Below are positions 1,368 through 42,500 of a stretch of 64,000 nt of DNA, one piece after another. Below the pieces are notes generated by a model, which was given only the letters and a program-made list of their open reading frames with translations, made no database searches and was not told the DNA's origin. Position 1 is the stretch's first letter. Each line of letters starts with the position of its first letter. A program made the position numbers and the translations under genes. Source of the DNA: Tubulanus polymorphus (taxonomy: Eukaryota; Animalia; Nemertea); assembly GCF_964204645.1 (NCBI RefSeq), contig NC_134028.1:23866345-23930344 (forward strand), read 5' to 3'.

Positions 1368-1452
1368 GTATTATCAAGTTGAATATGATAGATCATATCA
1401 AACCGAGTTTTGTCAAACACAGTTTCTTACAGGCAATATATAGTCACGAACA

Positions 1453-2331
1453 ATGGACGACGCACAGTACAGCGCTTCTTTCAAGTCGTTATTATTTCAT
1501 CTAAGTAGAACCCGGTCGGATCCAAAGCGATTGTCAGAAACATTGCTCGAATGCTACAGGATTATATCTGATCAAGGTCGAGGTTTACGGGTGCTCGAAA
1601 TCGGACCCGGTCATGGTCATCTAATAGAGGACGCATTAGCAGAGGCTGAAGTTAAAATTGAACGGTTTGACTGTGTGGAACAGAATAGTTACATGGCTGC
1701 CGAATTGGAATCACGAATCAAAGGTTTGGCCGAGAAATACGGCTTTGATTACAAAATATATAACAAGTGGTTTTCGATCGAAAATGTTTCTTTCTTTCTG
1801 CAAAAGTTCTATGATTTGTTAGTGCTGTCTAATGTTCTCTACAGTCGGTATTTCGACAATCCGGCGCAAGTTTTGAAAACGGCTTTGTATCAACTAACCA
1901 ACGACGATGGACGAGCGATTGTCTGTCTCGATCTCTCCGAAAACTTTCCGACTATCCGCAACGATCTTTATAGTATTCTACCACGGGACGACGAAACAAC
2001 AGCCATTGCCGAGCAATTCAAGAAACCATTCGATATAAATCGCTTTCTGATAGAAGCAGAAACCCGAACGATCGCACAATGGACCGATGTTCATGGCCTA
2101 GCTCTTCATTTAGCGCTGAAACCAGCTCGACCCTGCATCAGCGAAGAAGATAACAACATTCGTAGAATCGGTGACGAAATCTTGTCGTTTATAACGCGCA
2201 GAAATGTAGGCGCGATGTCCGATGAAAAAAGAGCCGTAATTCAAGACGTCGTAAAGAAATATGCAGTGGATAGTTACGGGTTTCCGATACTTCCGATAAC
2301 ATCGGGTTTCTTTGTTTTGGCTAGAAAATGA
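1453..2331 (+). CDS. Class I SAM-dependent methyltransferase, paralog 2 (292 aa, intronless CDS)
   Basis: Motif I VLEIGPGHG, post-I FDCVE, motif II/IV YDLLVLSNVLY. A likely 5' UTR splice acceptor (tttcttacAG, 1432) precedes the ATG. Confidence 0.88.
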   Translation: MDDAQYSASFKSLLFHLSRTRSDPKRLSETLLECYRIISDQGRGLRVLEIGPGHGHLIEDALAEAEVKIERFDCVEQNSYMAAELESRIKGLAEKYGFDYKIYNKWFSIENVSFFLQKFYDLLVLSNVLYSRYFDNPAQVLKTALYQLTNDDGRAIVCLDLSENFPTIRNDLYSILPRDDETTAIAEQFKKPFDINRFLIEAETRTIAQWTDVHGLALHLALKPARPCISEEDNNIRRIGDEILSFITRRNVGAMSDEKRAVIQDVVKKYAVDSYGFPILPITSGFFVLARK

Positions 2332-5866: not shown

Positions 5867-8800
5867 TCAAACCATTTTGCTGGTTACTTTTTGTTTGGTG
5901 TCGAATTTAAACGCGTAAACCGAGTCCAGAAATGAATCTGGTAAAAACGGTGTTATCGCCGCAACGATTCGATGCGCTGAGTTAGGTACGTATCGAGTAC
6001 TCGGATGGACCTCTAAGAGCGCTTCCACGATACTGTCGACCACCTCGCCTGTTTCATGTACCGCTTCGTTGTCTAATAAGCTGGCTAGTTTGCGTCTGAA
6101 CGAATGGTAGTAACGATTGCCGTATGAAAGCTGGACCGATTTGGGCGTCTGCGACCAATTACTTTCCATACTGGCCAATATAGCATCTGAGTTTGAAATT
6201 GGAGTCCTACAATTATAAGATAGATAGATGTCCATCAATAGATTTGCACTGTGATAGTTGACTAGGGTTAATTAGATATACATATATATAGCATATCAAA
6301 ATTCATAGACAATACTGTTCCGTATGACGAGTGCTCAGGACACATGATCTGATAGGTCAAAGTCCTGTGAACTGGTTGTATGGTCAGTACTGGCTATTGT
6401 TTTAGATTTTTCGATGACGTGGTCGTCTGGTTCTGCTGGGTATAAAACCCAGAGGGACACGACTCTCGCTCTCTCTTTTGTCTAGCTCTCTTTTGCTCAG
6501 ACTTTGGCAGCCATCGGTTCAGACGTTGGTTAGGTCCCATGAGATCGCCTAGTTTGTTAGATTTATTTTTGGAGAAGTTTCATCCGTATATAGAGGTGAT
6601 CGATCAACTGACACCCACAAAAGTAAAAACACGACAGTGTTACGTGACGATGTTTAAAGGAGATTTAACACCAAAGATATTAATTTAAAAAGATTGACAA
6701 TATTTTAATGTCCAATCTGGATGTATAAGCCTAGAGAATACATTATATTTTTCATCCTGTAACGTAATAATAGGATGTTCTGGGTTTTCTGACACTTGTT
6801 TTAGATTTTGGAGACTTCGCACATTCATGAAGTTGAGAGGGGGTGGTAGGCGCGATTTCTTGCTTCCACAAGTGCGGGCATCGAGACATCGCCGCGATAA
6901 GGACAGTCGATCCGTCAGAATCTACTAAAGGGATGGACGCAATTATGTTACCTGTACAAACCGGGCTCAATGGTATGCACGGAAATCTCGAATTTACGCA
7001 TTTCTCTTTTCAAACACTCCGAAAAACCGACCACCGCAAACTTCGACGCGGTGTACGCCGAAAAAGACTGGATCCCACTTCGACCTGAAAGAAATGAAGG
7101 AAATCATTTGACGATAAAATAAGTAACTAATTAAGACTTGCTTCGCACATCGCAAGAAATTTACCTGCTAAACTGGCTAAGTTTATGATCCGACCCTTAG
7201 TTATCCTCAGAAACGGTATGAAAGCTTTCGTAACGCGCACCAACCCCAAAAAATTGACATCGTACATTCTCGTGTATTCCTCTAACGACGTCCATTCAAC
7301 CTCCGAACAAGTCGTAACACCAGCATTATTTACAACGGCCCACAGACCTATACATCAAAACAGCCAAAAAAAATTTTCCTTCAAAATATTTTCTTATTTT
7401 CAATGACACAACTACACAGTGGAACCACTTCACAACGAACCTGTGGACCTGAAAATCTATCCGTTAAAACTGATAGTTCGAATCCGGTATGAAATTATTT
7501 GAATTGTCCTATTTGGGATGACATTTTACTTTTATAATAACCGATAAATCTATATCTGAAGTCGTTAGGTTGCACTGTATAGTTTTCCAGCAAAAAAAAT
7601 GAAAATATTTAGTTAGTTTTGATTTAAATGGCAAAACAGTAGATTTAAAGATCAATTATTTACCAGTCGGAGGTAATTTGCTTTCAATAAATTGGACGGC
7701 ATGAGTGACATCTTCGTCTTTGGTGACGTCTAACTTCAGAACATGGAGTCGCTTTGAGCCGACGTTCATCAACGAGTGAGCACCAGACTTGGTCGGGTAT
7801 AAACAACCGGCAAAAACCGTAAAACCAAGTCGATCTAATTTCCTGGCCAGTTCATGTCCAAATCCACTGTCGCAACCTGAATTATGAAAATCGAGATTCC
7901 GATCTAAGAAGAAGCGACCGTTCTAGAATTGAATTCAAGTCAACACAACTGGATCATAGTGTGTCAAAGTCTTCGGAGAGATTTTGAAACGTGTAATGGA
8001 TAAATGTTGTCTTCTCGTCAATGTTGTTAATGCACTTTCAACAATTATCCCATTATGATAACTGAAGTAGATTTTCAATAACACTTATAATACACGAATC
8101 CATTCTAAACACGTCTGACTACTGCAAGATTTATAATGGCTTCTTTGCATGCTAAAGAGGACTTCAATCTCAGTAGCACTTGCGGGTAACAAACATTCCG
8201 TATGAAATAAAACACCACGCACGAGTATGAGTGGAGATAGAGAGCGCCCATAATTCAAATATTAAACCATCAAAAGAGTTCAATCGTTTTTCAGATATCA
8301 TTTTAAAAGGAACCTATAATATGGCTGCAGCCAGCAAAATTAAGCCAAGTCAGTAGCTTGACGGTTCAGGCTAGTTGGAAGATTGTTTGAATAAACTGGA
8401 GCCGAAACTTCTGTGTACTTAGATTTAAAACGAAAAATTCAGTAAATTCGACCGCCGAACACACAACTATATATCTGTACTTCAATTTCCGATTTCAAAA
8501 TCAAACCCCATGTTTCGTGCTCGGCAGGTGTGGTGGGTCTGTAAGGGACACCCAATCAAGTCAAAACATATCAGACAAAATCGACGAATTGAATAAACAA
8601 CAGGGTCAATCTCTATTTCAAGATAAAAAATGAACCTAATTATTTTTTTCTTATTCATACAACGTTGACAATGTTCCAACTATTAATAGTCATGTTTTCG
8701 GAGATCCTACAGTCGTTTTGTTCCCATTCATTTGCTACAGAAAAGAATGATATGCTGCTGCATATAAAAGGAGAATGAAATAGGCTGATTAAAAATCCTT

Positions 8801-10278: not shown

Positions 10279-13200
10279 TTACGGGACTTTCGGTTGAACA
10301 AATTGCACCGACACGCCTGGGTTCTTCATTGAATCCTTTTCTTTTTTTATCTGTGTAAAAAGATAAATGAAGACATCATAGTTTTCGCGAAATAACCTTC
10401 GTAGTTTCGACACTTACGACCAATACGAACATTGAATCTTTTACTAAAAATCGCCCCTATTGCTTACCATTATATAACTATCAATATTTGTTGGTCCCTT
10501 TGCTCTGAGAAGATGTGGAAGTTGATTCTGAAAATGTATACATACACGAAGCTTGTTCAAATTCATTACAACATCACGTCTCCGAAAAAAAAATTGCAAT
10601 TTTAAGTTTATTTCAAAATCATGTAGAATTTTTTACCGTTTTGATATATTCCCACACAGTGCCGGCGAATTTGAACTTGTAGATTCCTTTATCGTTTGGT
10701 ATGAGATAAATTGTCGGCACCGAATCGAAGTCACCAGTACCAACATCTAAAAGGTGACAACAACAAACGTAAGAAAAAATAAAAGATTTTGGTCACATTT
10801 CAGCGGCGATTACGTCTCGAATTTTCCAGAGATAATTACATTCAACTGATTATACATGGCTCGTAGCGCGCAGGGGGTTTTAGCGAGTTACGACGAGTCG
10901 ACCAAAAAGAAAGCGGTCCGCATTTGAAAACAGAATTTTCAAAAATTGAATTAAATCCTGGGCCGCGATACATGACTAGCATCATGAACTCCATATTATA
11001 GGAAATCTAGAATTGCGACCTTGCAGTCACAGCGCGATGTTTCTAACTTCGAGCGAGCAACGTTTCAAAAAGGTCCGCATTTTAACGAAAACCAACTACC
11101 AATATAATCAGTCACGCTACGGGCGTTTTAGTGACCGGTAAAATGTCAGAATCGTTAAGGAATCGATTTGAAAGAATATACGCACGAATGATGTTTCCTT
11201 TCGCTGAACTCAGTTGATCAACATCTAACCGAATCGTAATGAATTTGCTGCCGGTCGGAATCAATCGGATTTTCATGAAATTACCTACAAAAAAAGGATA
11301 GAAACCGTGTTATATCTTCGACAGGATACTGATTCTTCTCGGACTTGGAGTAAACGCACCGATCTTTTGCTGATTATAAACGAAGCTAACAGACTGACAG
11401 GTAGACCCGTCTCCACCGCATATACCGCACTTATCGAAACGTTTCTTCGACTCAAACGAATTATCGCAACCCAATTCCTTTAATAAATAACATTTCATAA
11501 GGATTTAGATTGGTTTATTAGTTCAATAAAAAAGCATTTGCTTCGAGCGCAGAAACGAAAATCAACAATCTATGTAAATGCAGGATAAACATGAATATCA
11601 ATTACCACGGTATATTTTTTTTTGGCGTGACATTACTAAGTCAAAGTGGGTTTTTTTTCTGTCTACTAAATTATCCAGATTCATTGGGGTTTTTCTATAC
11701 AATCTAAGAGGATTTATGTATATTTTGGAAACATAAACCTGTTGATTTGGATGCATAAAGTAAATTGTAAATGGTCACCGGGTCGATCGCGGGGAGGGAG
11801 TTATTACCGTACAAACACCGTCAACGCATACATCATTCTGTCGATCTGAACAGCTTTTTCCATTTCTCGCTTTGTGCGGCTTAAAGGATAGTTTAATCGC
11901 TGATGCTGTACATAACATTGTACATCGGGTAGAGCCTAAAACATGGTAAAATGAAGGTGAATTATCGCTGACATTTGAAATCTCGTTGATTATGGTTAAT
12001 CTGTTATTTACCGGTGCCGTACATCGCGGGATCATAAGCCGCGTATATTTTAGCCTGACCTAAAATACCGCATTCGGAACTCAAAAGTTCGTGTCTCGTC
12101 TTTGGAATCGTTGGACAAGCCTGTAAAATATGAGGATGTTAGATCCCGAATAACACGGCTAACGGGTCAGACGCAGGTTTACACGACTATAGTTTCACAT
12201 CGGCACCACGCGCGCGTACCTGCTCGTAACAGTATTTGACTCGAAATGACGCCCCGATGCATATTCTACCTCCAGGACCTGGTCTACAATTACAATCAGA
12301 ACAACGTCAATAGAAACAATTACTTACAGTAAAAATTTAAGAAAGGATGACTAAATAAGAATTTCATGTAGTATATATTGATATGTTTTGTACGTACGGT
12401 GGATTCGTGCACGATCTATTCGATATTTTGACACCTGCTCCGCACATTCTCGAACACGGACCGAAATCTGACCATTTCGACCAGCCGCCATCCGCCGGGC
12501 AGCGAATTACTTTTCTGATCGGCCAACTTAGCCTGATCAGGTTCGAAGATTTCTTGGGCTTCTTGGGCACCCGCGTATCGAGGCAGGTCGATTTCTCTGA
12601 TCTGGCGGAGAATGAGAATATAGATGCGGTTATAATGACACAGAACTCACGATGTAGGTTCGAACCAGCCGCGAGGTATTCACCCCACGAGACGGTAAGC
12701 AGAATGTTGAGGTTTGATGGTATTGTGGGTAGCATTAACTCCTAACTCTTAAAACCTATGGTTCAAACTTATGGTTCTAGCAACACTTTTATAATGTAAA
12801 TCTATTATGAAAATGTATTAACATAATTCACAATTACATATATGGAATAGGCCTGCAATGGCCCTTAATTCCAGAGAGAAAAAAACCCATGAAATTCGCA
12901 GATATAGTATGGCTGACACCGTATATACGACAAGCTTTAAAATTCTTTTCCCGCTGGAACAACGTTACTGATTCCTTTCTTTATGTACAACTACAAAATG
13001 TCACATTTTTTCTCCTCTATTCATTGACGGTGGTCGTTTTTTTACCTTAGAAATTCTTTCATCCCTTTGATGCTACATTTCGACCAAAACATCCCATCAA
13101 ATTGACTGAACATCAACCCGGCTGGGCATATATTCTTATATGGTTCATTGTAGTCATCAGGCATATTGAACCTAAAAATTATTACGTTCAACCTATTTCA

Positions 13201-15684
13201 AAGCTCGTGAAAATTTTACGTATATTCAAACAGAACATGAGCAGGTTTTTTGTTTCCTCGATTTTTCAACTTGAAATACAGGAACTAGACAGACAATAAC
13301 AATGAACTATACTTACAAATGTCCGGTTTCATGAGCTAAGAGTCGAGACATGTAATTATCATATCCAAGATGGTCGTTACCGCCAGAGCACATGCGCACT
13401 GGGTCACATGCTCCCGCTTGGAACGCCCGTCCCCAGATCACTTTACCTGTAGTACCATTCAAATAAAACCTTTAAACTAAAACTAAGAAATTTGAAATGT
13501 TTTTTTTCTTATGCTGAAAGTGGAAAATTACCTGTGGATCTAACTTTTCCAAAAAGGCCGTACACTCTAAAATAAAGAAAGAATCAGGAAAGAAATTTAA
13601 TTAGTTAAAGGTAAAAGGTTATAACGAGGTCAGGTTTGAATTTAAAAAAACTAAATGGAAATATTCACCCGGAGAAGTAAATGCTGATTCCCCAATCTCG
13701 GCCGGTTCCGTCGCTTCTTGTACCACCTGGTAAAAATGTCGATTGGAATCTACAGTAGCCGTGGAAGTCTGAATATCCTAACTGATAAAATACATCCAAA
13801 TTATCTCATTGATAACATCAGATAATTTCATTGACATCAGAAGAGCATGATTTGAAGATCTGAGATTGAACAGAAAGTGATTGATGACTACGATTACCTC
13901 TGTTGTTGTCTCGTTCAAAATAACTATTTTGGCTACAGTGAAATAAATTCTGTAGCCCAATGAAGGCAACAAATACCATCGCTGTACCTGTAAAAAATAA
14001 TTTGTATTCCCTACGTCTTTTCAAGAGATAAAAAAGAAATACCTTCTGAAAATTCCCCCAAAAATGCAATATGTGAATATAATTTGTATTGAGAGGGAAC
14101 CCACAGAAAATAATCATTTACGATATCATTCGTATAAATCATGACAATCAAAATTCGATACCGGTGGAAAAAACTTTTTATGAGAAAAATTGAATTGACC
14201 AAAAATTAATCGTAGAATTATTTACAATTTCCCCAAGGATATGTGAAAAAGATGTAAAAAATTAGCATAGATACCTTGTGGAGAATATCTAGGGCATGTT
14301 TCGTCAGATCTTCTCTACTCGAGGAAATATTCTTATAGAATTTGTCGGCGTATTCTTTATCGATGAACACCGCAGTAACGGCGTTCAGTTTTCTACGGGC
14401 CGATAATCTAGTGGATACTATCGAACGTTTCATACGACCGCTAGGGGGCGGTTCTGACTGGTAACTGATACAGTGGGTCGTCTGTCGTGCCGTTACTTTC
14501 GCGTCGATACGATAAAGGCCACTATCTTCTTCCTCCGTTATAATGGAACCGATCTAAATTCAAGATAAAATTCATCTACGAATACTTTATAAGAGAAACA
14601 AGAGGCCTTGATTCGTATCATGTGAGCTCAGGCACATATGAACCTGTGGGGGTTGAAAGTGAATATATTTACCATATTTTGACACCTGTTCAGTAAAGCT
14701 TCCCCGATATGTTCCCCATTGCGACTAACGTTACCCTTTATGTAACAATAATTGAAATGATCAACATTGTCTTCCCTCAAGTAACCGCTGGTTGACCACA
14801 CTGATAATAAAAGAAAAAATAATCAGCATTATAAATCTAAACAGTTTACTGGATGCCCTTAGTCGAAGGAAAGCTTGAGTTTTTTATGTTACCTTGAGCA
14901 AGAAGGCCTTCGGCGATGAACGTCCCGGATGACGCTTCGATGACGTACGAGTGGCCTGAACTAAGTGTGAATGCGACACGAACATCATCGCTATCAGTGA
15001 ACTGTGTTTGCATCAAAAAACATGATTCACCTATAGAAGATATGATAGAGTGGTAAATCCAATCGGTAATTTCAATGATTAGATAAAATATTAACCCATC
15101 ATCTTTTTCAGGTTTAAAGTCAAGGGTTTTGATTTTAAGATAGGGATTGTTCCTTTATTGATTTTATTTATTTGATTGATAGATATTTTTGCTATTTGGA
15201 GTCCCCTTTCAAACCCACCACACCGCACCTGCTGGGAGTGGAATAGGTAGTTTGATTTTTTAGTAAAAAACCGAAGAATATACAGATACGTATAGTCGTG
15301 TGATCGGCGGTCGAATTTACAGAATTTTTTGTTTAAATCGAAGTAGGCAATTGGTAATATCTGTTCCAGTTCATTCAAACAGTCGTCGAACCACCAGTCT
15401 GAACCGTCAAGCGACTGATTGGGGTCAATTTTGTTGGCTGCCAAAATTAATACATCGAGATTCTCGAAATAACTATACTACAAGATAATTATTTTACCCG
15501 TATCATTGGGGTCAAAAGCGGTCGTTGTTGTCAAACAAAAAGCGATCTACAAAATGAAAGAGAATGGTACAGAAACAATAATGAATATATTGCAAATATG
15601 ATCGACAATATTGTTTTAAGCTTAAAATTCTACGAATGTGTATAAAATCTACAAAAACAAACGAGCGAAAAATATTCGTGTCAT
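10279..15684 (-). CDS. Atypical ADAMTS-family secreted metalloprotease (signal, prodomain, furin site, M12B domain, TSP1, Cys-rich, spacer), about 19 exons
   Basis: Exons approx. 15663-15684 (uncertain), 15498-15546, 14893-15030, 14673-14800, 14275-14553, 13898-13987, 13669-13781, 13532-13566, 13317-13446, 13046-13171, 12398-12601, 12220-12283, 12012-12120, 11808-11936, 11360-11477, 11186-11285, 10637-10746, 10468-10527, 10279-10350. Motifs [12 protein letters not shown]|[79 protein letters not shown] at about 9994-9999 (-). Confidence 0.9.
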
Positions 15685-17774
15685 GTTGTTGTATTATCCG
15701 TGGGAATCTGTTACGGGTTTGATGAAGTGATCATAATTAGCGACGGTCGTCGTTGTAATTCGGTGGTAGATACTAATTGGCCTAAATGTTAATCAAACGA
15801 CAACTAAAAACTAGATTAGACAACAAAAGTTTGTGCTTGCTCATTTAGATCCACCACGATATTGACATATTCATATGTATGGCTATAGGTAGCTTTCAAT
15901 ATAATGAAAAAAAGAACAAATCGGTTATCGGTTGATTAATGATTTTTACATAGTAACTTGCATTATTTTCATTTTCGGGGATATATACTTTCTATGAACA
16001 AGTTGACACAGTCGATGTGTTTTTTAATGCTTTTTAATGAATCACAACTGACTTAAGAAACTTAAATAGTTGTGATAGTTGTAACCACGAAGAAGTATAC
16101 CCGTTAAATCTCAAACCGCTACTGCTATCACGACGAGTAAAATATTTTACTTACTAACGATACCGTTGCGATCAAATGATTTCTGTCCATTTTCGGTCTT
16201 CCATATAAACTGATATACATTTGATACTTTCACCAGATTTAGGATTATAACGACTATGAACAGATCACGTTTATACTGTCGTTAGTTCTATAAATTGTAT
16301 CCGCGTTCATATTGTAAAATTATGGGTCATAAACCGACAGTGCTATACCACGCAACCGAAACCGGTATCCGGTCACAAATAGAATCTAGTCAACACATCG
16401 AATTGGCCAATTAGCAACCGAAAATGAATCTTCTATGCGGGTATGATTTAAAAATTTGCGTCAAATCAACCGCAACATCAAGCAGTTTATCATCGAAATT
16501 TTTGTCTGTTTGTAAAATGTCATTCGTCAGGTCATACGAATATTTCGTCCCATCTTTTTCCTCTCATTTCTAAGAAACACTGTCGAGACGAAGTGTCTAC
16601 TGGATTTCTTGACGGGCTTCCCGTTTCACTAGAAAGATAAAATGACATTTCGTACGACCCTTCAAGTTCATACTGATCCCACAAACACGCGTGCGTCTCC
16701 CCCGCAATCAGGCAGGATTATCTTGGTGAAACGGTCCGTGTTGTGACGCTAATATAGAAAACCCACAGTATTCCTGAAAATGATTATCAGGATTCAGCAG
16801 AAACGCTGAATGAAAATAAATCGTCAACTGAAGGTAACCTTTTCGGACTCGCTTTTCTTTTCGAGTCTGGGATTCTCTGTTGCAATCACGCCCGCGCTTT
16901 AGATTTTTTACGTAAATGATAGAAACTAAGATGGCTGGCTGCGGGGGCTGTATTTTTGTATATCCTTTCCTTCTGCTATGTTGTCTTCAGGGGGAAAAGA
17001 TGCTTCCGGGGAAAGTAACCATCGATCGGGGTATCGGTGAACGAACCCCCTGAAATTTTCAAAATGCCCTTCAAAAGGTCGGTGTAAAGATTTTTCGAAA
17101 TTTTGATACAATTTTTTGATATAGTTTTTTTTGTAAAATGGAAAAGTATCCATTCTCAAATGATTTATTCAGGTACCAGGGCACTTCATATTTGAGATCT
17201 GTCCTTTTTCAGCAGGAAAGTGCCGCTTTTCGTGGTAAAGAGTCCCATTTTTCTTGAATAGAACTGCCCCTCAAAAAAGCTCGGCACGGGCCTGATGATT
17301 TCTCGATCGGTCGTTCCTTATTTGAATCAAAAGTTCCTGACGACGCGCAGTCCAAACCTGTGGCACTCAGGGCACGTATATTGCAGCAGTGAAAATCAAA
17401 TACTTTTGTTAGAAAAATAGATCTTTATTACGTCATACAAGCAAACTAAGTTCGTGAGATTTAACACCATAGAGATCCATCATACAAAATTGTATCTTAA
17501 AGAAGTTCGCAAATTAAGTAACAATAAGGTCCTATAAACGAAGCTGAACAAGCAAATAGATACTAGAATTTATAAGTGATCTCGGAATTAAAATTCTGCG
17601 TTGATATTAATCTAATTTTTCACTAGAACAACATATCATTCATCTATTCCTAATTCTAATGACATATCAAGGAGTGTTACCTACATATATTTTTGACAAA
17701 TTTGATTTTTGCAGAGCACTGAAATTTATACTTTAAAAAGTGCATATAACAATGCATCAGTGCATGATTGTGTT

Positions 17775-20098
17775 TTATGACTCGATCAAGTTTCCTTCGA
17801 GATTCAACAATTTCGACCCGTAAGTCTGTACGTAATCTAATAACCGATTGATTTTATCCAAAACGCGATAAATATCTTTGTCGACGTGTCTTAGACTGTT
17901 GGGTGGTTGATAACGAATTGAGCTGATTTCGGCAAGAATATCCTGTCGATGTGCGCCTTCGTCGGTCAGACCGAACGCGTGGGCGATGCCTCTGAAATGG
18001 CACAGAAAGTTCTTGACGTAGTTGACCATGATGTCTTCGATGTTCAGACGACTGATTCGATCGATTCGGCTTCGCTCGAATAAACTAACGTGATGTAGAA
18101 ATACGACATGGCGCAAAGCTAGTTTCTCCAGTCTCTTAATGCTGTCGACTCGATCGTCCTGAAATATTCAAAATATCATTTCGAAAATAACCCATTTATC
18201 GAACCATGCACGGCGTACAAATATGTTTTATGATTATTTTTTTTTGATTTACCAAAGTCTTCACGGAAAAATCCTTGTCGGCAAAATCGCGAGCGACTGC
18301 GAGAGCTGGGATTCGATCAGTTGTGTTGTACTTTAGCCTCCTCGTAAACTAAAAGAAAAAACAACAGAAAAACACATTCATAGAAAATCCGAATATTCCC
18401 GAGATAAGTGGATGAGAGAATTGTTGGTAAATAGAAAATGATCGACTACCAGTCACCAGAGTTTCTCTGGAGGTTACATTTAGATGAATCACAAAACTGT
18501 CAGATCATTAAATTTTGAAATATCATCAGTGCGGGATTTTTCGTTAGATTTCCAATCTATGAAGTTACGGCTCGGTGGTGTATAATGGTTAGCACACAGG
18601 GTCGTCCCAGGTTCAGATCCTGATAGCTGTCCTTGAAATGCCACGGGTCTGATTACTAAGCGCAGGGGTGGCTCGAATGGGAGAGTGTAGGGTGTCAACT
18701 TGCCCCATGATATTTCATGGGAAAATGACAAATATCAAACTGACACCTAAAAAGTTTTAATTCATATTATTAGCTTGTGTCCTCTGTATTTCCAAAAATG
18801 AGTTAATGTTTTCTAAAACGTTTTTTTTTCGGGTGCCCTTTTAATCATATGATGTGCCCTGTTTTGAGATCAGACCCTGGACCAATTTAAACATGATAAA
18901 ACAACATCTGGTTTTGAGTTAAATCATTTGGTTTTGATGCCCCTTAAGATTCTTACCGTAAAGTCTTTTAAATGGTTTATTTTATTTTGAAGCCGTGATG
19001 CGGCGAACATGAACGCCTCAATCTCAGCTCGTGTGATGGATGTGGGCCGGTAATCCTGCGGGCCGCACGGGTCAAAAATGTCAATCTCACTCGGTAAACT
19101 GAGAGCATGTGCCGACACCGCGCCGGACGAGCGCCGTGACCGTATCGGGTCAACCGGGAACGGTGCAGATAAATCTAACATAGCTCCTACACAGAACAAC
19201 ACTAAAAACGAATGTAGCAAACCTAAAATAACAAACGTATAAAACTCAAGAAAATTTTCAAATGGTCGCATAAAAACTGGGGGTACGAAGTAAAGAAAAT
19301 CCACGTTTTTTATGAAAATGTTTTTGAGCGTTTCTTTTTATTGATTTTCACCGTGGAACTCACAATTACCGGTAAGCAGGTAGTGGTTTGATCGAATTTG
19401 TTATAAAGACTTCGTTTGATAGATTCAAGTTTCGTCAATATTAAGCGCATTAAATTAAGTAGCTATTAAAGGTCGAGTTATTTTAGAAGAACCACCCAAT
19501 TATTTCTGCTGGGGACACCCCTGTTATAAGATAAAACAGCATTAAGCACGGAGATTACTCTGTAAATATTGCGCTATATCAAGAAGATAAATTATTATTA
19601 CTATTATCAGTATACTAAAGATTCTTGCCGGCAACTTCCAGGAAGCCAAAGCATTATTGAAACCAAATGGTTTTTCCTGAAACCATCTAAAGAAGTGGTC
19701 ATTTTTCGACTTGTAAAATAACGTTATTAACCTTAGAATTTTCAATGGTACCCACGGATTAGATAGAATTTTATACATAACTATCTAGTCATACATGCAT
19801 GCATTGTAATAGAAATGTTACCTTTAACAACGAGATACATTCAGCAATTTATCACTCAAAATTTCAAGTAATTGAAATTTTAAATTGATTTGATCTAATG
19901 ACACTTTCAACTAAACGATTACGTATATGAATAGGTTTTTCGAACGAATTTTATCAAGAGCATACAACAGTATAAAATTTTCCTTTACAGGAATAAGTGA
20001 GCCCCGAACACACATGGATACTCACATAGATACTGTAAAGGGGAGTTAAACTCGAGCCGAACGAAATCTAATCCTATTTTGCTTTTCGTAAAATACAT
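17775..20098 (-). CDS. Orphan secreted protein (about 272 aa), candidate long-chain four-helix cytokine precursor, 4 exons
   Basis: Exons 20026-20098, 18957-19222, 18253-18348, 17775-18158 join in frame (intron phases 1,0,0). Hydrophobic LCLLHSFLVLFCVGAML segment, RSRR furin site, FDPCG, amphipathic helical blocks, and AATAAA at about 17424 (-). The gene is well supported; the family call is inference. Confidence 0.75.
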
Positions 20099-21319
20099 TG
20101 TCTCAGAGATATTGATCAACAAACTCCGAACAAGAACGATATAATATTAATCAAGATGAGTTTTGAACTAGATTTCAAAGAGAACTGAAACAATGTTGAT
20201 TGATATTCTTCGTTTAAATAGAAACCACTTCTAATTACAGTAACGCTCATGAATATTCATGGAAGGTAACTTCTGCGAAGGTGGCATCGCGCTAAAATGT
20301 CAAACGCTATGTGGTATTTCAAAAACTTACGAATTTTCACCATCGTAAATGTCAATCTGATCTCTAAAATCAACCGCTAAATGTTAACGATTTCGAATAA
20401 TGACTTTCGCCCGATTCCGACGACAATCTCTTATATATGCATTTATGTAAGAGTTTCTCGCCCACTGACCGATAGCGATACGGGCCTGCCCAGTTCACCG
20501 GGGATTTTGTAGTCAGTTCAGAATCCATTGTCTTTGCAGTGAAACTAGTTTCCGCTCTATTCATGCCTCGGTCTAAAACAAGACGATGATCACAAATCAC
20601 AAAAATAACTGGCGACGTTTTGTACGCTGGGACGGGTTTTTCTCAGAGTGGTTTCGGTCACGTTTAAAGCTGCTCAATTTGTGTTTTGTGTTGATTTTAC
20701 GTGGGTTTTCGACTATTTTCGTCGCATTACTGTAACATTATACGTAAGTCATTATGTCATAAAACTCGGTTTCGCTTTTACGACAATATTGGGTCATGTT
20801 TTATGCTCAGATGAAAACAGATACACGATTATGTTCAATTATCCGTCGATCGATTCTAAATTTCAAAATCGAAAGCTTTGTACGGAAACACTCACGAGAA
20901 ATTGAATCGTACATAACAAAATGTGCCTTATTAACTCACGAAATGAAATTACCGCAAAATCACGTTTTTCCTCGGAAATATTCTGTTATTCAATTTAAAT
21001 AGAAAGCGTTGGATGTTTTGTGTACCTTCAATACACGCATGCATGCATGTATCTGCGCTTCCATATCCCACATTACTGGGGTTTTTCTGTCCAAACTTTG
21101 TGCTTTTTCTAAACTAAGGGGTTTAGGGATTGCACATCAGTATAATGCTGTGTATTCTATTCATATCCACCGTCGTCTGTTTTTCTTCCTGGCCCAAATT
21201 TCTGCTTAGTTAATTCTCAATAGTTCTTACTCGAAAAGTCAGATATTTTATGAATCTAGCGTTTTTAATCGCTGCTAATGATCATACACAGTGACAGCAA
21301 ATGAAACAAGAGTGAGCTA

Positions 21320-21541: not shown

Positions 21542-22202
21542 AATAGACTGCTATCTGGAAGGCTATGAAGACTATAAATCCAAGAAAGATTATTGAGAGA
21601 GCCGTTAAGAAAGTAGCGGTGATATTTGTATCAAATAGCATTCGTTTATTTACAAAATACAGAAAATATAATGATAGAAATGATAATGTCATGACAATAG
21701 GTTTTTCTATACTGTACAACTGGCACTATGTTGTTGTTAGGAGGAGGCAAAATACTCTGCAAGACGAAGTACGAATTTAGCGTCAATCTGCTGCTTCTCG
21801 GACAGTCAGTATAAATCGATCTTACTTCAATAAACCCTTCAAAACAGCGTGTAAAGACGATACCTAAAGACTTAAAGACTAGAGCATTATTCGAATCAGT
21901 AAATTCCTGAAATGTTATTATTAACCAATCTATACGTGCTACGTGACTCAATGGCTTCTAAATTCGTACTCGGTCGGGTGAAAATCCAACTGATTTCACT
22001 TCTACGAAAAATCATCAACTATTCATCGGATTTCGGGTGAAATATAACCTTTTTTTCAAAACGTTGTCGTGTACTTGTGTATCTTATACTTACAATTGAT
22101 ATGTGACGAGAAGAACAGGGACCTAATAATAGTTATATTCGATACGATTTGTGATGAGTAAAAAATACTGACTGCATCAATTCTAAAACCAATGAGAGCT
22201 GC

Positions 22203-22516
22203 GAGGAACCACAGATGGAACTGTTTCCTGTCAACCACAGGTGGTACTGGTTCCTGTGAACCACAAGTGGAACTGTTTCCTGTGATCCATAGACGGAATT
22301 GGTTTCTGTGAACCACAGGTGGAACTAGTTCCTGTGATCCACAGGTGGAACTGGTTCCTCCAAACCACAGGTGGAACGGTTTCCTGTGAACCACAAGTGG
22401 AGCTGTTTCCTGTGAACCATAGACGGAAATGGTTTCTGTGAACCACAGATGGAACTGGTTTCTGTGAACCACAGGTGGAACTAGTTCCTGTGATCAACAG
22501 GTGGAACTGGTTCCTC
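22203..22516. repeat. Minisatellite, about 12 copies of a 26-bp unit (accacaggtggaactggttcctgtga)
   Basis: Directly visible head-to-tail units with no spacers; each unit is internally palindromic (ggaac-N2-gttcc). Confidence 0.95.
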
Positions 22517-23059
22517 ACCTCACATAAAATTGCTACCGACTTTTATCAAAAAGTGTACAACAAGGCCAGAGTGAAATTCGTATGAGCCCTGAGTTGTTTC
22601 TATCAAGCAATTCTCAGTGTACAACTTACTTCTAGTTGACTCGTAACACGCTGTAGAAAAGTCAGCTTCAAACCGTATAAAGATTTATCTATTAAATGTA
22701 GCGAATACAAAACTAATGCCGGCTGTTTAAGTATGCTGTCCTCACCCCTCAGACAATCTATCACCATCCTTACATAAACCGATCGTTCAGCCATCGCCTC
22801 GACCTCGGGCATTTTTATTTGAAAATGAACCACAATCTTTGCCCGAGCCCACAGACATACGATATCATCAGCACGAATGGAATAATATCAGATCGTCCAG
22901 ACCAACACGAGGTGTTTGTGTAAGGAGAATGCAGGGTACGGACACGTAGATAACCGCATGAAACACAATAGAGACAGTAATGAGTGGTTTCAAAGTTAAA
23001 AGTACTGTTTTCACATAGATATCACTCACATAAACTATAGGCTCTTGTCTCCAGATACA

Positions 23060-23227
23060 GGGAACCACACGGGGGGTTACATGATACAACAGGGGACCAC
23101 CGGCGCGGGGGTTACATGATACAACAAGGGACCACCGGGGCTGGGGATACATGATAAAAGGGGGTACCACCGGGGCGGGATACATGATGAAATGGGTAAC
23201 CATGGGGGCGGGGATACATGATAAAAC
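23060..23227. repeat. Degenerate G-rich minisatellite, about 5 copies of about 32 bp (ggggaccaccggggcggggatacatgata)
   Basis: Recurring tacatgat anchor with G-runs. Confidence 0.85.
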
Positions 23228-25832: not shown

Positions 25833-33246
<7,414 letters not shown>

Positions 33247-33571: not shown

Positions 33572-36500
33572 ATGTTTTCACGATCAAAAACGTGGCTTCC
33601 TGGTGGGATATGGAGGCCAAAAAATCCACATTCTCTCGAACATCTGAAGTGAGTATATGTCGATAGAATCGTTGAAAGAGAGTGGATTTTAAAAGATTGG
33701 GAGGGTGGTGGTGTGACGTGAGGAAGGGATATGGTGAATACCACCGCAGCATACGTTATTTAAACAGGGGCCTATGTGAAGAATTTCATATACCTTTAGT
33801 TTAGTTGCTAGGCCTATGTATTAAAAATGTACTACGCCTACGGGATGGGCTTGTCATAAAGTGAATGGATGAAATTGAAACTTCTTCAGATTATACAGGG
33901 AAATTGGGGTTGGGCATTGGTACTAGTTTTATCCATTCACTATCAATCGTGACGAGACTTGTGGTAAAAATATGGGGGTGAAAACTTTGCGTCCGGTCCT
34001 TACACGGCAAGGTCACTAATATAGTGGACACACTTATTGATTTCTGTATTTCAGATATTTATACAGTTTTTTCTGTATATCAGATATTTATAAAGTCAGT
34101 TTTTTCTGTATTTCAGATATTTATACACAGTATTGTGTAAGAATCAAACAGTTACCGATACAAATCGTAATCTACTCGTCGAAACTTTACGCGCCATTTC
34201 CGAAATTCTAATTTGGGGCGATCAAAATGATAGTTCAGTATTTGAGTAAGTATCAGTGAGAAGAAAGAGGAAGAGAGAGTTCATCTCGTACTCAAGTCAA
34301 ATCAACTTTTCAAGTCTTAATATACCTCGACTATGCTTGGACTGTTAAGATTTCTCGACATTTCATATTGCATCTTGCTGATAGATAGAAAATAGAGCGT
34401 AAAACCTTTTAGCAGAAAAATTGTTTTTTCACAGAAAGCAAAAATATATTCTATAGCCTGTATATCGGAAGAGTTATTTTTTGCGCCGATGTCAAACAGG
34501 AATCATAGCTTTCATTCAAAAACTAAATAGGAAAAATAGGTTATTCAAGTAGGTGAGGTGAACAGCCTGTCAAAATGCAGGGATAAGTTGTCCACAGGGT
34601 ACGAGTTGACCTGCGACCGAAAGAGAGGTTGGTCGGGTCGTTTGACTAATTTTCTGAAAATTATTATTCAATAGTTTTTTCTTGGAGAAGAACATGCTGT
34701 CGTTTTTTATCAAGTACCTGCGTCAGAAATCCGGTCGATTCATCTGCGTTCAATTGTTACAAACGTTGAATATCCTATTCGAAAATATCAGCAACGAAAC
34801 GTCCGTCTGTAAGTAAACTGTCAATTTAAACATGTCGATCGGTTGACTCCGCCCTTTGTTCAGGGTGGAAATCAGGGGGAAATCAGCAAAATTTCTTTTC
34901 TTTAAAAAGTTGGGTAATGTTGAGGAATTCTGTAAAAAAAGCCAAAAGTCAGGCAACTTTGTTGAGATTGCGTGTAAAATCAAACAGTTTCCGTCTATGT
35001 CTTACGTATTTGACTGTGTTAATTGATTGGATTCTTAGCTCACTATGTCAGGGAAATCAACGTACATGTCGGGGAAAAGTGAAATAAAAGTGGCCACCGT
35101 GTTGTTTTTCATGATTTGCCTAAATATAATGATTTTATTACGATACTTTTAGATTATTTGCTGTCGAACAATCACATAAACGCTATAATCGTGCATAAGT
35201 TTGATTTCTCGGATGAAGAGGTGAGCGTAAAGACTGAATTTGAGAGAATCAATCGTTTTCTGTTCCTGGATTCTGATTCAGTTGTTGTTTCTGTTTTCAG
35301 GTGATGGCTTACTACATTTCGTTTTTGAAAACTTTGTCGCTGAAGTTAAACAAACACACAATTCATTTCTTCTATAACGAGGTAATTATGATAAAATTGA
35401 TACAGAATTATTTTGTTGCTGGTACCCTGCATCCCATCAGTCCGGTCCCTGAAATCTCTCAGCCTGGACCATGCATCCCTTGTCATTTGATACTTAATCA
35501 CAATTATTTATCCACACTTCACATACATTCGGAACACAAAATATTAGACATTTTATCAGCACACGTTCAAAAACTGATCGTCCACATTTCACTTGTGTTG
35601 AGAACTTCACCTGAGACATTTTCAATTGAAAGTGAACTACAAACACCAGACATTTCAGCTCACTTTCTAAAAGTGATAGTCTGAAAGGGATGGTTCCAAA
35701 ATGTATATCGATACCTGCATTAACTCTTATTGTTGATTTGTGTTTTATATTTTCAGCACACGAATGACTTCGCTCTGTACACGGAAGCGATTAAGTTTTT
35801 CAACCATTCAGAAAGTATGGTTCGTATTGCCGTTCGCACAATCACTCTGAACGTCTATAAGGGTAAGTAGATTAACAGAAATCACATACGAGAGGGCTTT
35901 CTAATATATAAACACTACATCATAGAAACTCCATATTTTAAACATAATATGATATAATAATCATCTGAATATATATGTATATATTTAAGTTCTCCCCTCG
36001 GCTTTCTCCTCAAATTTGGAATAAGGGAAGTTGCTCTTATTTATTTTGTCAATAAAAATCGACCAGTCCTTATATATGATTATAATACCTAGATTTGATG
36101 ATACCAGTGGAAAATTCATTTTTAAGACAAATAGAATATTTTCACGGTCTAAGCATGTTTCCTATGAATATTTAATCACCACAGTTTTAGTTTATTTCCC
36201 TATTTAAGGTTTCAATCAAATCCGTATTTGTTTGGTATTTGCTTCTGTCAAGAATTTGTTGTTATCTTCGGTATTTATTATTTACCGTTATATGAATTGA
36301 TTTGTTTCAATATTTCACTTTTACCTCGACTCTACAGAAAGTCTGTTGCATTACAATCGAAGCAAAGGTAACTAGAAAAAAACTTGATGGTATTTCGTGG
36401 ACACCACGTATGATGAAGAAGGGTCCATGAAGACTGGCTCTTGACTTCTATACAAATCTTCTTTCATTACAACCCTAAAATTCCACTCCTTTTTCTGATG

Positions 36501-39500
36501 CAAATTTGGGGTTTTTCTATTTTCGAAATTCGTTATTCTTTAATTCTTAAATTTGCAAATTTCTACTAAAAAGAATGTTTCTTTTCGCATTCAATTCATT
36601 TCTTTGTTTGGATTTGTTTTTAGAGGCATTCGGTTCTTTTTTTAAAATTTTTTCTGAGCAGATTTTTGATTTTGTGAAGAAAAAGAATCGATGATATTTT
36701 CGTCGAGTTGTCAGTACTGTGACGTGCTACTATAAACCTGTCTGAAGTCGGTGGTAAAGAACTGGCCAATACCTAATATTCTTGATATATTGCACGCCCC
36801 CTTTCCCCGAAGTCCAATGTATGCAGATGTTTTGTCTCAAGTTATAAACTATATGATCCCACCAATGAATAAAACACAGTGATATGTACAATGTTGAATG
36901 TTGTATGGTTTTTCTGTAATTTATCCTGTTGTATAGCAGTTTATTTGAAAAATTGTACACGATCCCAAATTGTTTCGGTTTACCCTTGTAAGAAATTCAT
37001 ATCGACAGGATCCCTACGACTCCTTGATTCCTTACAAACTTCTTCTAAACAGAAAGTGCTTTTAAAAACTCCTTGCCAAATCGGTACAGTTGGAAGCAGG
37101 ATTCTTTTTACCTAATTAGGCAGTTACCGAATTAGAAACTGAGTTTAGCTAAATTAATGATATATGGTATATGAAATTTTCTCCAGATGCTTGACTGATT
37201 TTATCAGATGCTTAACTTCCTCAAAATTTGAAATTTTCTGTCTAAGAATTCTTAGAAAACTCCTTATATCCAGGAATGACTGATTTGTAGGGACTCTAAT
37301 CTTTCATGTTTTCGAGACCATAACTTATCAGGGTGATAGGAGACCCAGCCCTGGCCGTGCCCGCTATTGTTTTCATCATCCAAATCCTCGAAACTATAGC
37401 GCGTTGCTAGGTTACCGATTGTTAATTGATTGCGTATGATCTGCTATAGTGTTGGAGAATGCTAGTTGCCTGGATACCAGTATTGACGTTGTTCTCGGGC
37501 AGCCGGACTCACGTAAGACACAAAACAATATCAACATCCTCCTCTATTTTTCGCTTGCTATTTCTTCAACACACTCATCTTTATATACTACATGTTTGAT
37601 CATCTGAATTCAATTAATCATCGACGAAATTGCGCAATGATTTTTAAATAACGTAACCTTCCGATCCTACCGTGAATTAACCAGCAGTTAACAGAGCTGT
37701 AGAACTAACGTCTTGACTTGAGCAAACATTGCAAAAACACCCTGAAATCAAACTAGATTTTTCAAAAAACGTAACGCTTCCATTTTCATCAAATTTATCG
37801 GCTTTGTATCGACGATCTCTAAGATAACTGCTGGTTAAAGCTTAGCTAACCACAACCGGCCTAAGCAACCAGTGTTTTCGTATAGCCTATGTATGTACAT
37901 TATATCGGAAGACTCGACTCATGAGGTCATCGGTAACGTTGGAAACATTCGAAGGTCTCGGCAAATTTGGCTTGAAAATCTTATTGATTGTCTTGAATTT
38001 GACCCTATTTTGGTCAAGTGATATTTGCTTAAAGTGCTGGGGGGCCAGTTGCTCAAAAGTTGGTTAAAGATAACCGGTCGTTAAATACCATAGTAACAAT
38101 GAAATTTCAATTGTCACCATATCAACTATCTACTGGATGATCTTCCGCTGGTTCTTTTCATGACATCATGTGCGAGTCCTCGACGCGTCGATGTGTTTCA
38201 TAGATATAATGAAAATATGAATTGTCAATTTTCAGTGTAAATTGTGGAATTAATTAATTAGAGTAGCGATTACTAATGAAACTATGTAATGAATATAGAA
38301 ACTGTTTAACTGTAGTAACACAGACTGATTACCGAGCGTTCTAACGAAAATAACTCGCTATCAGAAAACTTGGATTTACAATATCAAATAAAACCCTGCT
38401 ATATACAAATTTACAAGATAGAAATTATTGAGAATGAATCTTGTTTTCAATCTTATCATTTTGTATATAGTGTGTTTATTTTCACAAACGCTCATATGAC
38501 ATGTAATATACATGTGATTTCATCATACACCGGAGTATTGCAATGTGGAGACAGGACGAACGCAGCATGCGGCACCAGATTTCGGTGGTACCAGTGCTCA
38601 ATTCGGTGCTTGGTTATTTTCACTCAATCGTAAAAACTCGCGTCACTTACTAAAATTTCATAAATTGTGTATCAGCCTGTATCGATTAATAGAATTTAAC
38701 TGTTTCGATGGAAATCGATCGTGAACTGATGATTTTAAACGGGCGAAAGAAGAGAATATTTTGTAAGACAGCACTATCATTTTCTAGCTACCATGCAACT
38801 GTTATCTATGAATGTACACCCATGAAATTTATATATTTTTGGAATGGCTTCGGTGGCAGTGTGTGTAATATCATATCGAGTAATTCTGTATGTTTCATTC
38901 CTCATGTGACATCATGTTGAGATTATTATGGTAGTTTTTGTTTCCAGAGATGTGTATTTATGGAGGCGGCCATGTATTCCGGAAGTGTTTATTAGTGTTG
39001 ACTAACTCGGTGTGCAGTTATTAATTTGTATGAAAAAATTAAGGAAAAAAGACTTTAAATGCAATATCAGAAATCCTGATAGACTAGAACCCAGTTACGC
39101 AGTTGAATTTGAGTTTAATATCGATCAATTTCTGTGTGTTTGATTCTATCAGGCGTTAGATTGATGTGAAAAATAATGAAAAATACACGTCTGTAACTCA
39201 TCCGATAATAGATTTTGATCCCTTTTCATACCATATACCGTGGAGCTCAGATGCACATTGATGTGTTGGAGTTCAAAAAAAAAGATTTTCAATTCAGATT
39301 CATGTGATCAGTAACTGCTTTATGTTATCGTACCTTGAAAATATTAAAAATCTGGAAAAATTATTTATGAAAATGATAAAGATTCTGATAGCCTATTTAG
39401 GTTGTGAAAAAATGTGAAAAAATTCCAATCAATCAGATTCCTGCTCTACTTTCATTGACAACTATTGGAACTGGATTCTGTAAATGTTTTATACGGAGTT

Positions 39501-42500
39501 GTTCTCGATGTTGATTAATTAATTTTCGTTTGAACGTTTCATGTTTTTCAGTCGATGACAAATCGATGTTACGATATATACGCGATCGAACGGCCGCCCC
39601 GTATTTCTCAAATCTCGTCTGGTTTATCGGTAATCATATCATTGAACTGGACGCGTGCGTTCGAAACGACGCCGAGTAAGTATTAGTTTATGGTGGCTGC
39701 CGTTTCTGCACTCGCGGAACTGGATCCTTCCATAACTGTAGCACACTTGACTACGACTATGATTTGAGAGTAGTTTGGGATCATTCATTTATTACGTACG
39801 CATTCGGCGAGGGGGGAGGGGTAAGTGCAATTGCGTACTGTAATGCTTGATGTATATGAAAAAATGGCCGATTTTGCGTACAGGGAGGAGGGGGAGTTGA
39901 AGAAGTCAAATTTCATGCGTACGTAATAAATGAATGATCCCTTTCTAGCTCAACTTCTCTCAAAATGTCAAAAATACTTTCGAAATCCGAATTATTTCTA
40001 GTTCATTTTCAATTAAATCACTATTTTGATGTCAAACTACTCACATTTTTTGGTAAAAACTACTACAATTAGAGATATTCAGGTTTTCTGGTCTGTTGTA
40101 TACAGCTAGCTCCAGAACTACGAACCTTCGTAAATAGTTGAGACTATTTCCATGAATATCATTGAGAGAAAACGGGTGGAACGATTCCACCCGAAACCTG
40201 AAAAGAAGAAAACAAATTACAGTTGCTCGAATTGATATTGTGGGTTTCTCTCAATGATGCTGCGAACCTTGGTCCAGATCTGTAGAATTTGGCCTCTTAG
40301 GTTAAACTGACTGTCTAGTGAATGATTGTTTGTTTGTTTATTGTAGTCATCAGAGTCGCGATCGTCTGGCCGATCTAGTCGCCGAACACCTCGATCATCT
40401 TCACTATTTAAACGATATTCTATGTTTGAATATCGATTGTTTGAATGACGTTTTAACCGATCATCTGTTGAATCGACTTCTCATTCCTTTATACGTTTAT
40501 TCGTTAACGAAGCGTAGGAAACACAGATCGGTCGTCATTGTTGTAAGTATGAAATTTCGACATTGATGATGAAACGTTTCGTCGTAACACAGGGTGGCGC
40601 TTCTGAAACTGGAACACTCGGGGAATTAGAAAAATTCGATTTAAAAAAAATCAGGGAATTTGACCGATTTTGGAAAACCTGGGAAACTCGGGGAATTTGG
40701 ATAATGCTATTGACCACATTTATCAGTATGTGATTCACTGAAAAATGAATGAATTGTAACATTTTAAACCTAGAAATTTCTCTGATTCACTCAGGGAATT
40801 TTGTGTAATCACATGGAAAAATCAGGGGAAGCTGTAAATTTGATTGTAAATGGGCGGAAAGTGGCCACACTGAATGATCATATAGAATCCCAGACTCGAA
40901 AAGAAAAAAGTCAGTGTTCCTGAAGGTGACTAATAGGATAAAGTCGAAAATAAATCATTACCGAAACTCAAGGAAACCTTTTCCTCTTTCTTTCCGAGTG
41001 TGGGATTTCTATATCATTCCCCGTGTGTAAGATTAATCTCTGAAACCATTTTGCTCGATTAATGAATTCGAATGTGACTGTATTTCAGGATTCCCGTCCG
41101 CACGTCAGTTCTGTTGTTTCGCTGTTTCTTCTGTCTCAAGTATTCCTCATACTGTCGCACGCGCCGCTCGTCAGGCAATTAGCCGATATTATATTCCACG
41201 GAGACATCAGCGTCACATCCGAGGAACCGCATTTACAACAGGTAAACAACTCGTTCACGACTTAGTTCCGGCCACGAGTTTGAGTTAGTCTAAAATAAGA
41301 ATAGGACACAAAGTAAATATCAGATATACCTGGTAGTCGCCTAAATTTGTCTCAATTAATTCCAAACGATAACCGTTGATGAAATGGTCTGTCCATGTTG
41401 TAATGAGCAATGTAGGAGCAAATTCCTCGATGCAAAAGGAAAACCGAGTCTGAAATTTTTCCTTAGTGCTTTTAGTTTATTTGATGTTTCTACTATATGC
41501 TAGTAGTCATCTTAAGGAATACTAATGTTATATAACGAAATAATTAGGTACATATAAGTGTACAATTCAGAACGAAATGACTACGACCAACATGATGCAA
41601 ATTATAGGTAAATACAACATAAAAACATTGACAAACTAAACAAACTGAAATACTTTTGGCGTTATATTTTGACCGATTTAATTCCTTTGAAAATGAACTA
41701 CTGTACATGTAATTTATATATAGAACTCAATCAGTGTAGTCGCTAAAATGCCAACATATCGGTCCAGCAGTGAGGCGCTATTCTTGTGGTTTTCACTTGT
41801 GTTTGTTTTGACTATTTCTCAGGGCCAGTGGAGCGGAGTACGTGGGTTCATCGCGCCTGATGAACCGCTCGCAATGCTGTTAGAACGAACAAGTCAAGAG
41901 CCGCGACCTCAGATCATGCCGCGTGGTCTCGAAGGATCCACGGCGAGTCTTTACACTGAAGTTTCAGGGCAACCGATCTCCGACCAGGCAACAGGTACCT
42001 GTATACAATAACAGGCAGATGCTATCTTTCTATAGTTACTCCTACAGGCTGGCCACTGACCAGGGAATCAGAATAATCTAGAAAAAATCAGGGAAAATTT
42101 GGATATGTAATTGACCTCACGTTTCTTTATCTCTTTATGATTCATAAAGAATTAATAAATATTAACATTTTGAATCTAGAAAATCCTCAGATTTTCTCAG
42201 GGAATTTTGTGTTATATAACATGGAAAAATCAAGGAATTAATAAATTGGTGGAAAGTTCCCGCCCTGTCCTATGACTATGGTATTTCTAAATTGTTTTAC
42301 CATATTTCATTCTGTTATAGCTGTTGCTACTACTGCCGCTGCTGCTGCTGATGATGATGAAAGTTCAGTGAATATAACGGATGAAGAAAAACTACAAGCT
42401 TCAAACAAACAACCGCCTACAGAACAAGAGTTTACACTTACTAACAGGTAATATTATAGAATTAACAGCTATATGTGATGAAAGCTGTTGAATTCAGTTT

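Follow-up and report, generated by a model that had tools for sequence, protein, structure and literature searches.

Does a nemertean encode a ligand for a receptor of the Domeless/gp130 type? A signal that activates JAK/STAT has so far not been found in most invertebrates, and molluscs are described as having the receptor, JAK and STAT, with no ligand reported there (PMC13203501). We analysed a 64,000-nucleotide stretch of the Tubulanus polymorphus genome (the window), in which a preliminary description had proposed an orphan, cytokine-like secreted precursor. The gene is a candidate for such a signal: its product is likely a long-chain four-helix cytokine that would activate JAK/STAT via a Domeless/gp130-type receptor. 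On balance, we judge it probable that this receptor ligand works like IL-6, LIF and Unpaired while being filed in none of these families. What appears to be new here is a cytokine-layout orphan gene in a phylum with no such ligand in the literature searched, together with putative tandem STAT-type sites about 160-180 bp upstream. As the gene comes with coordinates, predictions of a processing site and a disulfide, and a candidate feedback element, the missing-ligand question becomes testable in one more phylum. The gene also bears on the question of whether Unpaired and IL-6/LIF have a common ancestor, and it suggests that such genes can escape public protein sets even where the species is otherwise covered.

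A four-exon gene model on the minus strand

The locus very probably holds a real gene, for which we propose an intact four-exon model on the minus strand, spanning 20098-17775 and apparently unannotated. Its parts are as follows.

Exon 1, 20026..20098, minus strand: 73 nt, covering residues 1-24 and one further base, the N-terminal stretch of the leader; the ATG has A at -3; donor GTGAGT, phase 1.
Intron 1, 19223..20025, minus strand: 803 nt, within the leader; contains a TTCCAGGAA site (19636), a kB-like site (19512) and an alternative in-frame ATG (19271).
Exon 2, 18957..19222, minus strand: 266 nt, residues 25-113; hydrophobic leader core, RSRR at 52-55, FDPCG with Cys77, predicted helix A at 89-112.
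Intron 2, 18349..18956, minus strand: 608 nt, phase 0; placed where predicted helix A ends; high-copy repeat near 18705-18830.
Exon 3, 18253..18348, minus strand: 96 nt, residues 114-145; presumptive long AB loop; NTT sequon at 121.
Intron 3, 18159..18252, minus strand: 94 nt, phase 0; placed where predicted helix B begins; 7 allelic SNPs, 0 of them in the GT or AG.
Exon 4, 17775..18158, minus strand: 384 nt including the stop, residues 146-272; predicted helices B (147-174), C (179-206, with Cys198), 212-224 and D (235-271).
Candidate poly(A) signals AATAAA, 17164..17429, minus strand: starts at 17429 and 17169, read from the sequence only.

When the exons are spliced at the DNA level, one open frame runs through all four, giving a CDS of 819 nt (272 codons and a stop), as had been claimed. 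All three introns (803, 608 and 94 nt; phases 1, 0, 0) are GT-AG, with donors GTGAGT, GTAAGA and GTAAAT and pyrimidine-rich acceptors. The preliminary description was also right that the ORF track splits the gene, as the stop-to-stop list of open reading frames holds separate pieces only.

The gene is located between an ADAMTS-like gene and SUZ12, and the window contains several further genes, three of which (SUZ12, CLEC16A and adenylosuccinate lyase) are useful synteny anchors.

1444-2331, plus strand: SAM-dependent methyltransferase, a single-ORF gene of 295 aa.
5867-7922, minus strand: short-chain dehydrogenase gene.
11775-16190, minus strand: ADAMTS-like gene for a secreted product, with a TSP1 domain; its leader exon is at 16190 and the following one at 15546.
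25833-30975, minus strand: SUZ12 (VEFS box, zinc domain).
About 35300-50500, plus strand: CLEC16A.
52832-58703, minus strand: adenylosuccinate lyase.

We considered nesting of the cytokine-like gene inside the downstream ADAMTS-like gene and rejected it, as the latter has its own leader exon starting at 16190. Within the span of CLEC16A, an open reading frame at 41727-42011 (plus strand) has an ATG and a signal-peptide-like hydrophobic stretch with no Pfam match, and could represent either a gene nested there or an alternative exon. Another, at 49424-50515 (plus strand), encodes 363 aa of low-complexity sequence rich in Ser, Lys and Pro, also lacks a Pfam match, is probably a late CLEC16A exon and is overlapped by a minus-strand frame of 271 aa.

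Coding signals and allelic variation

Codon bias and allelic variation support the coding status of the exons. Exons 2-4 have a GC content of 0.50, 0.48 and 0.45, against 0.27-0.38 in the introns, and base composition depends on codon position in the CDS (p=0.001) but not in the three introns (p=0.24-0.73). Three sequencing runs were read as DNA because they cover the introns and contain no splice joints. Over 17421-18573, one of them (X1) has two haplotypes with a single SNP (synonymous) in 480 coding positions and 17 SNPs in 673 non-coding ones; the Fisher p of 0.001 is too favorable, since the variants cluster in blocks, and the count leaves out indels and three variants present only in runs X2/X3, among them Thr257Asn. 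Locally, the contrast is cleanest between the 94-nt intron 3, with 7 SNPs, and the 96-nt exon 3, with a single synonymous one. Thr257Asn, found in sample S2, is a non-synonymous variant and counts against our preferred reading.

Could the gene model be partly wrong, with exon 1 unused, a silent locus, or a different translation start, for instance the ATG at 19271? The junctions were predicted from DNA alone, the protein's own record is missing from sets that include a neighboring gene of the same species, and exon 1, the least supported of the four, has an intron-like GC content of 0.34. Against this stand the canonical splice sites, the frame that stays open over four exons, the codon bias and the scarcity of SNPs specifically in exons, and we regard such an error as highly unlikely. 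Moreover, a start at the alternative in-frame ATG at 19271, inside intron 1, would retain a hydrophobic leader and yield an identical mature protein, affecting only the argument from the phase-1 intron.

By the searches made here, the modeled gene is single copy: no paralog was found within the 64-kb window, nor at 80% likeness over 17740-18420 (exons 3-4) in the DNA runs.

High-copy interspersed repeats lie 3' of the gene (17054-17307) and in intron 2 (18705-18830), where summed contig depth reaches about 1600 and 640, respectively, compared to about 30. In one haplotype, intron 2 also has additional sequence with a short tandem unit at 18384, some 35 nt from its acceptor.

Features of a probably secreted precursor

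The encoded protein is probably secreted. The hydrophobic leader that had been proposed is present, though its core is late (residues 24-41, Kyte-Doolittle 11-mer up to 2.84) and is accompanied by a V-G-A cleavage-like motif. The n-region ahead of the core is long (23 residues), which counts against our preferred reading. The furin-type RSRR site is found at residues 52-55 and the NTT sequon at 121, as described previously. Four cysteines are present: 25 and 35 in the leader and, in agreement with the earlier count of exactly two in the mature region, 77 (FDPCG) and 198 (NFLCHF). Trp is absent from the whole 272-residue protein. After a cut at RSRR, the predicted mature chain would have 217 residues, a mass of about 25 kDa and a pI of 8.5.

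Helical layout and predicted structure

The preliminary description had picked out four amphipathic segments with long loops after the first and third. The same four segments are the best non-overlapping amphipathic windows of the mature chain; their summed moment is reached by 11 of 2000 shuffles, and the weakest alone by 156 of 2000. The hydrophobic moment of exon 3 is low, and helix D is strongly amphipathic (moment 0.85).

We modeled the exons separately with AlphaFold from single sequences, covering the mature part of exon 2 and exon 4, with exon 3 outside the models. The mature part of exon 2 is predicted as coil over residues 56-88 and one confident helix at 89-112 (pLDDT of the last three blocks 93, 97 and 88). 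The exon-4 model, which is of low confidence (mean pLDDT 60, pTM 0.44), has helices at 147-174, 179-206, 212-224 and 235-271. Combined, the fragments give helices A, B, C and D of 24, 28, 28 and more than 25 residues and AB, BC and CD linkers of 34, 4 and 28 residues, which agrees with the long loops proposed after the first and third segments. Class I long-chain cytokines have four amphipathic helices of about 20-30 residues, which the fragment models contain (exon 4 at pLDDT 60), as well as long AB and CD links, a short BC link and often a short helix in the CD link, here 212-224. Helix A ends at intron 2 and helix B begins at intron 3, so that exon 3 would correspond to the AB link. In the fragment models, Cys77 lies 12 residues ahead of helix A and Cys198 lies 8 residues before the end of helix C, and the two would be neighbors in an up-up-down-down bundle. 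The predicted layout of helices, loops, cysteines and introns thus resembles that of long-chain IL-6/LIF-type cytokines, a likeness that the fragment models support.

Fold searches could use the exon-4 model, in which helix A is missing and the chain closes into a plain bundle that matches generic up-down bundles only. Foldseek returned 0 matches at E<=0.001 with this model in PDB and in BFVD. With VIA, the best Z scores were 11.9 (rmsd 2.6, 117 aligned) and 12.0 (rmsd 2.7, 126 aligned), a range that is usual for helical bundles, and no natural cytokine was among the 50 matches listed for this model without helix A. The top VIA match is a designed G-CSF mimic; it has an up-down topology, and we did not take it as support.

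Nemerteans secrete helical cytolysins. One alternative is a secreted helical protein that is specific to the lineage and has no relation to cytokines: it might serve in mucus or defence, or be a precursor from which cuts at RSRR, RR and KR release amphipathic peptides. Besides the cytolysins among nemertean secretions, the absence of a homolog or family in our searches, the plain up-down bundle into which exon 4 folds alone and the amphipathic moment of helix D would fit such a protein. However, it would not be expected to combine long-short-long linkers, introns at the helix A/B boundaries, the placement of the cysteines and tandem STAT-type sites. Moreover, we saw neither repeated peptides nor amidation signals in the sequence, and the single copy over exons 3-4 also speaks against this explanation, which we consider unlikely.

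Search for relatives

We compared the cytokine candidate with known proteins. A word-based search over 5.8 billion proteins with exon 4 left 0 of 219 candidates at E<=1 among proteins of 224-2000 aa, and one with residues 38-88 of exon 2 left 0 of 28 at E<=10 among proteins of 155-2000 aa. With phmmer, exon 4 had a single match (P0121) in 1.84 billion representatives. We rejected it as a homolog, as it is a bacterial Ig-repeat adhesin whose score sums 11 copies of a 25-bit match. None of 329 pattern matches in metagenome contigs was confirmed, and PDB sequences gave one chance match at E=0.36 in one search and zero in another. The four exon pieces, scanned apart, matched no Pfam family at cut-off; TYW3 (E 0.07) and DUF5560 (E 0.11) both fell far below it and were set aside. 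The Pfam profile of Unpaired likewise had no match at E<=10 in any of the four exon pieces, a result to be read with the pieces having been scanned apart and with HMMER filters that drop weak matches. The proposed orphan status is therefore borne out across protein, Pfam, PDB and metagenome searches.

The protein's own record was absent from the protein sets searched. The collection does contain a record of the neighboring adenylosuccinate lyase from the palaeonemertean T. polymorphus, which is the top match of an exon of that gene by a wide margin over other animals and is 97-100% identical in alignments free of intron read-through, compared to up to about 90% for Lineus longissimus. Because that gene of the same species is present, the public sets searched apparently lack the cytokine candidate.

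Among the literature matches listed, titles and the starts of abstracts named no nemertean or other lophotrochozoan ligand of the Unpaired/IL-6 type. An IL-12p35-like protein of oyster has reportedly been published. The orphan behavior of the gene fits the cytokine reading, since BLAST over 54 invertebrate genomes missed such ligands (PMC5385356). Further comparison literature comprises PMC4690019, PMC13524488, 10.64898/2026.05.30.728932 and 10.64898/2026.10.23.761461.

Comparison with known cytokines

How does the protein compare with IL-6 and with LIF/oncostatin M? It resembles them in its putatively secreted precursor and, as predicted from the fragments, in having four long amphipathic helices, a short BC link between long AB and CD links, and a short helix in the CD link. 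It differs from them in its longer leader, its furin-type site and the absence of detectable sequence similarity. In LIF and oncostatin M, a disulfide connects the N-terminal arm with the end of helix C. The nemertean protein likewise has one N-terminal cysteine and one in predicted helix C, between which such a bond would form.

Human IL-6 has introns where helix A ends, where helix B begins and after helix C. Introns 2 and 3 of the nemertean gene similarly bracket the AB loop. Long loops and a short CD-loop helix are described as features of the IL-6 fold (PMC7378365). A second source gives IL-6 genes one intron in the leader and three in the domain, for five exons, and IL-6 proteins usually four conserved cysteines, with two in hagfish and some fish (10.64898/2026.04.02.716188). 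As in those genes, intron 1 here sits in the leader, but the gene has four exons rather than five and one domain intron fewer. The preliminary description had matched the 1, 0, 0 phases to IL-6/G-CSF-type genes; the phases are correct and an intron does lie in the leader, but phases alone are common and therefore weak evidence, and IL-6 has the further domain intron, as set out in the same source (10.64898/2026.04.02.716188). The mature cysteines are two and far apart, unlike the usual four of IL-6, and the Trp of site III, for which IL-6 uses Trp157, is missing. We therefore do not file the protein as an IL-6, since its four exons, two mature cysteines and absent Trp depart from the five-exon, four-cysteine and site-III features of that family.

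Insect Unpaired-family ligands carry an N-terminal W-x-N-P-C-G-like motif, and the PCG of F-D-P-C-G in the nemertean protein may be comparable to the P-C-G of that motif. A literature search for the Unpaired W-x-N-P-C-G motif found nothing. The nemertean protein differs in having F-D-P-C-G rather than W-x-N-P-C-G, in belonging to another phylum and in the lack of a Pfam match in its exon pieces. The Unpaired ligands of insects are portrayed as secreted, glycosylated and fast-evolving four-helix candidates that act on Domeless (PMC3772116; 10.1101/2025.09.21.677592). By inference, the nemertean protein would be alike to Drosophila Upd1-3 and Aedes Upd-like in each of these structural and evolutionary respects.

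The receptor could also be of another kind. CSF-1, SCF and Flt3L are short-chain four-helix ligands of receptor tyrosine kinases, and a cytokine fold might act here through such a kinase or a CRLF3-like receptor rather than one of the Domeless/gp130 type. The existence of these kinase ligands and the missing site-III Trp would be compatible with this, whereas the predicted helices of 24-28 residues are those of a long-chain protein and not of short-chain kinase ligands. The Unpaired-like PCG motif and the STAT-type sites point instead to JAK/STAT. CRLF3, a class 1 receptor found across eumetazoans, is an orphan (PMC8063046), which would fit a ligand of this type; overall, we find another receptor class quite unlikely.

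Upstream STAT-type sites and a proposed mode of action

The gene is preceded by a putative feedback element.

20256..20279, no strand assigned: tandem STAT-type sites, two TTC-N3-GAA with a 6-nt spacer, 158-181 bp upstream of the ATG.

The 64 kb contain 40 TTC-N3-GAA sites and only 2 close pairs, the other of which is inside a tandem repeat. When the upstream 500 bp were shuffled 5000 times, 20 of the shuffles gave such a close pair; this test was post hoc. Class I cytokines act through WSXWS-type receptors on JAK/STAT, and the promoter sites would point to such signaling only indirectly.

We propose that a long-chain cytokine of the Domeless/gp130-binding type would be made and act as follows. 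The leader would be cleaved near Ala38, and furin would trim the chain at RSRR to yield a 217-residue glycoprotein of about 25 kDa. Helices A-D would pack up-up-down-down, and a bond from Cys77 to Cys198, close to where helix C ends, would anchor the N-terminal arm in the manner of LIF and oncostatin M. The ligand would join two receptor chains of the Domeless/gp130 type and so activate JAK/STAT. STAT would then feed back on the gene's own promoter, and expression would probably be low until injury or infection. Such low expression would explain the absence of the protein from protein sets.

The idea of a JAK/STAT receptor ligand with a long-chain four-helix fold, raised in the preliminary description as a possibility, thus gains from the secreted long-chain layout (fragment models, introns at helix boundaries), the orphan status and the upstream tandem STAT-type sites. 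The exon-4 fold searches with Foldseek and VIA, which returned generic bundles only, speak neither for this fold nor against it, and the exon pieces reached no Pfam cut-off. A bolder reading is that the protein is a long-chain cytokine homologous to both insect Unpaired and the vertebrate gp130 cytokines, with a LIF/OSM-type disulfide, an IL-6-type intron pair and STAT feedback. The cytokine, its exon layout and the loop would then date from the last common bilaterian ancestor and would have been hidden in lophotrochozoans by fast divergence and missed annotation. We hold this reading tentatively, at rather less than an even chance.

Farther upstream, tandem repeat arrays at 22056-22542 and about 23050-23200 contain long spurious open reading frames as well as the only other close STAT-type pair.
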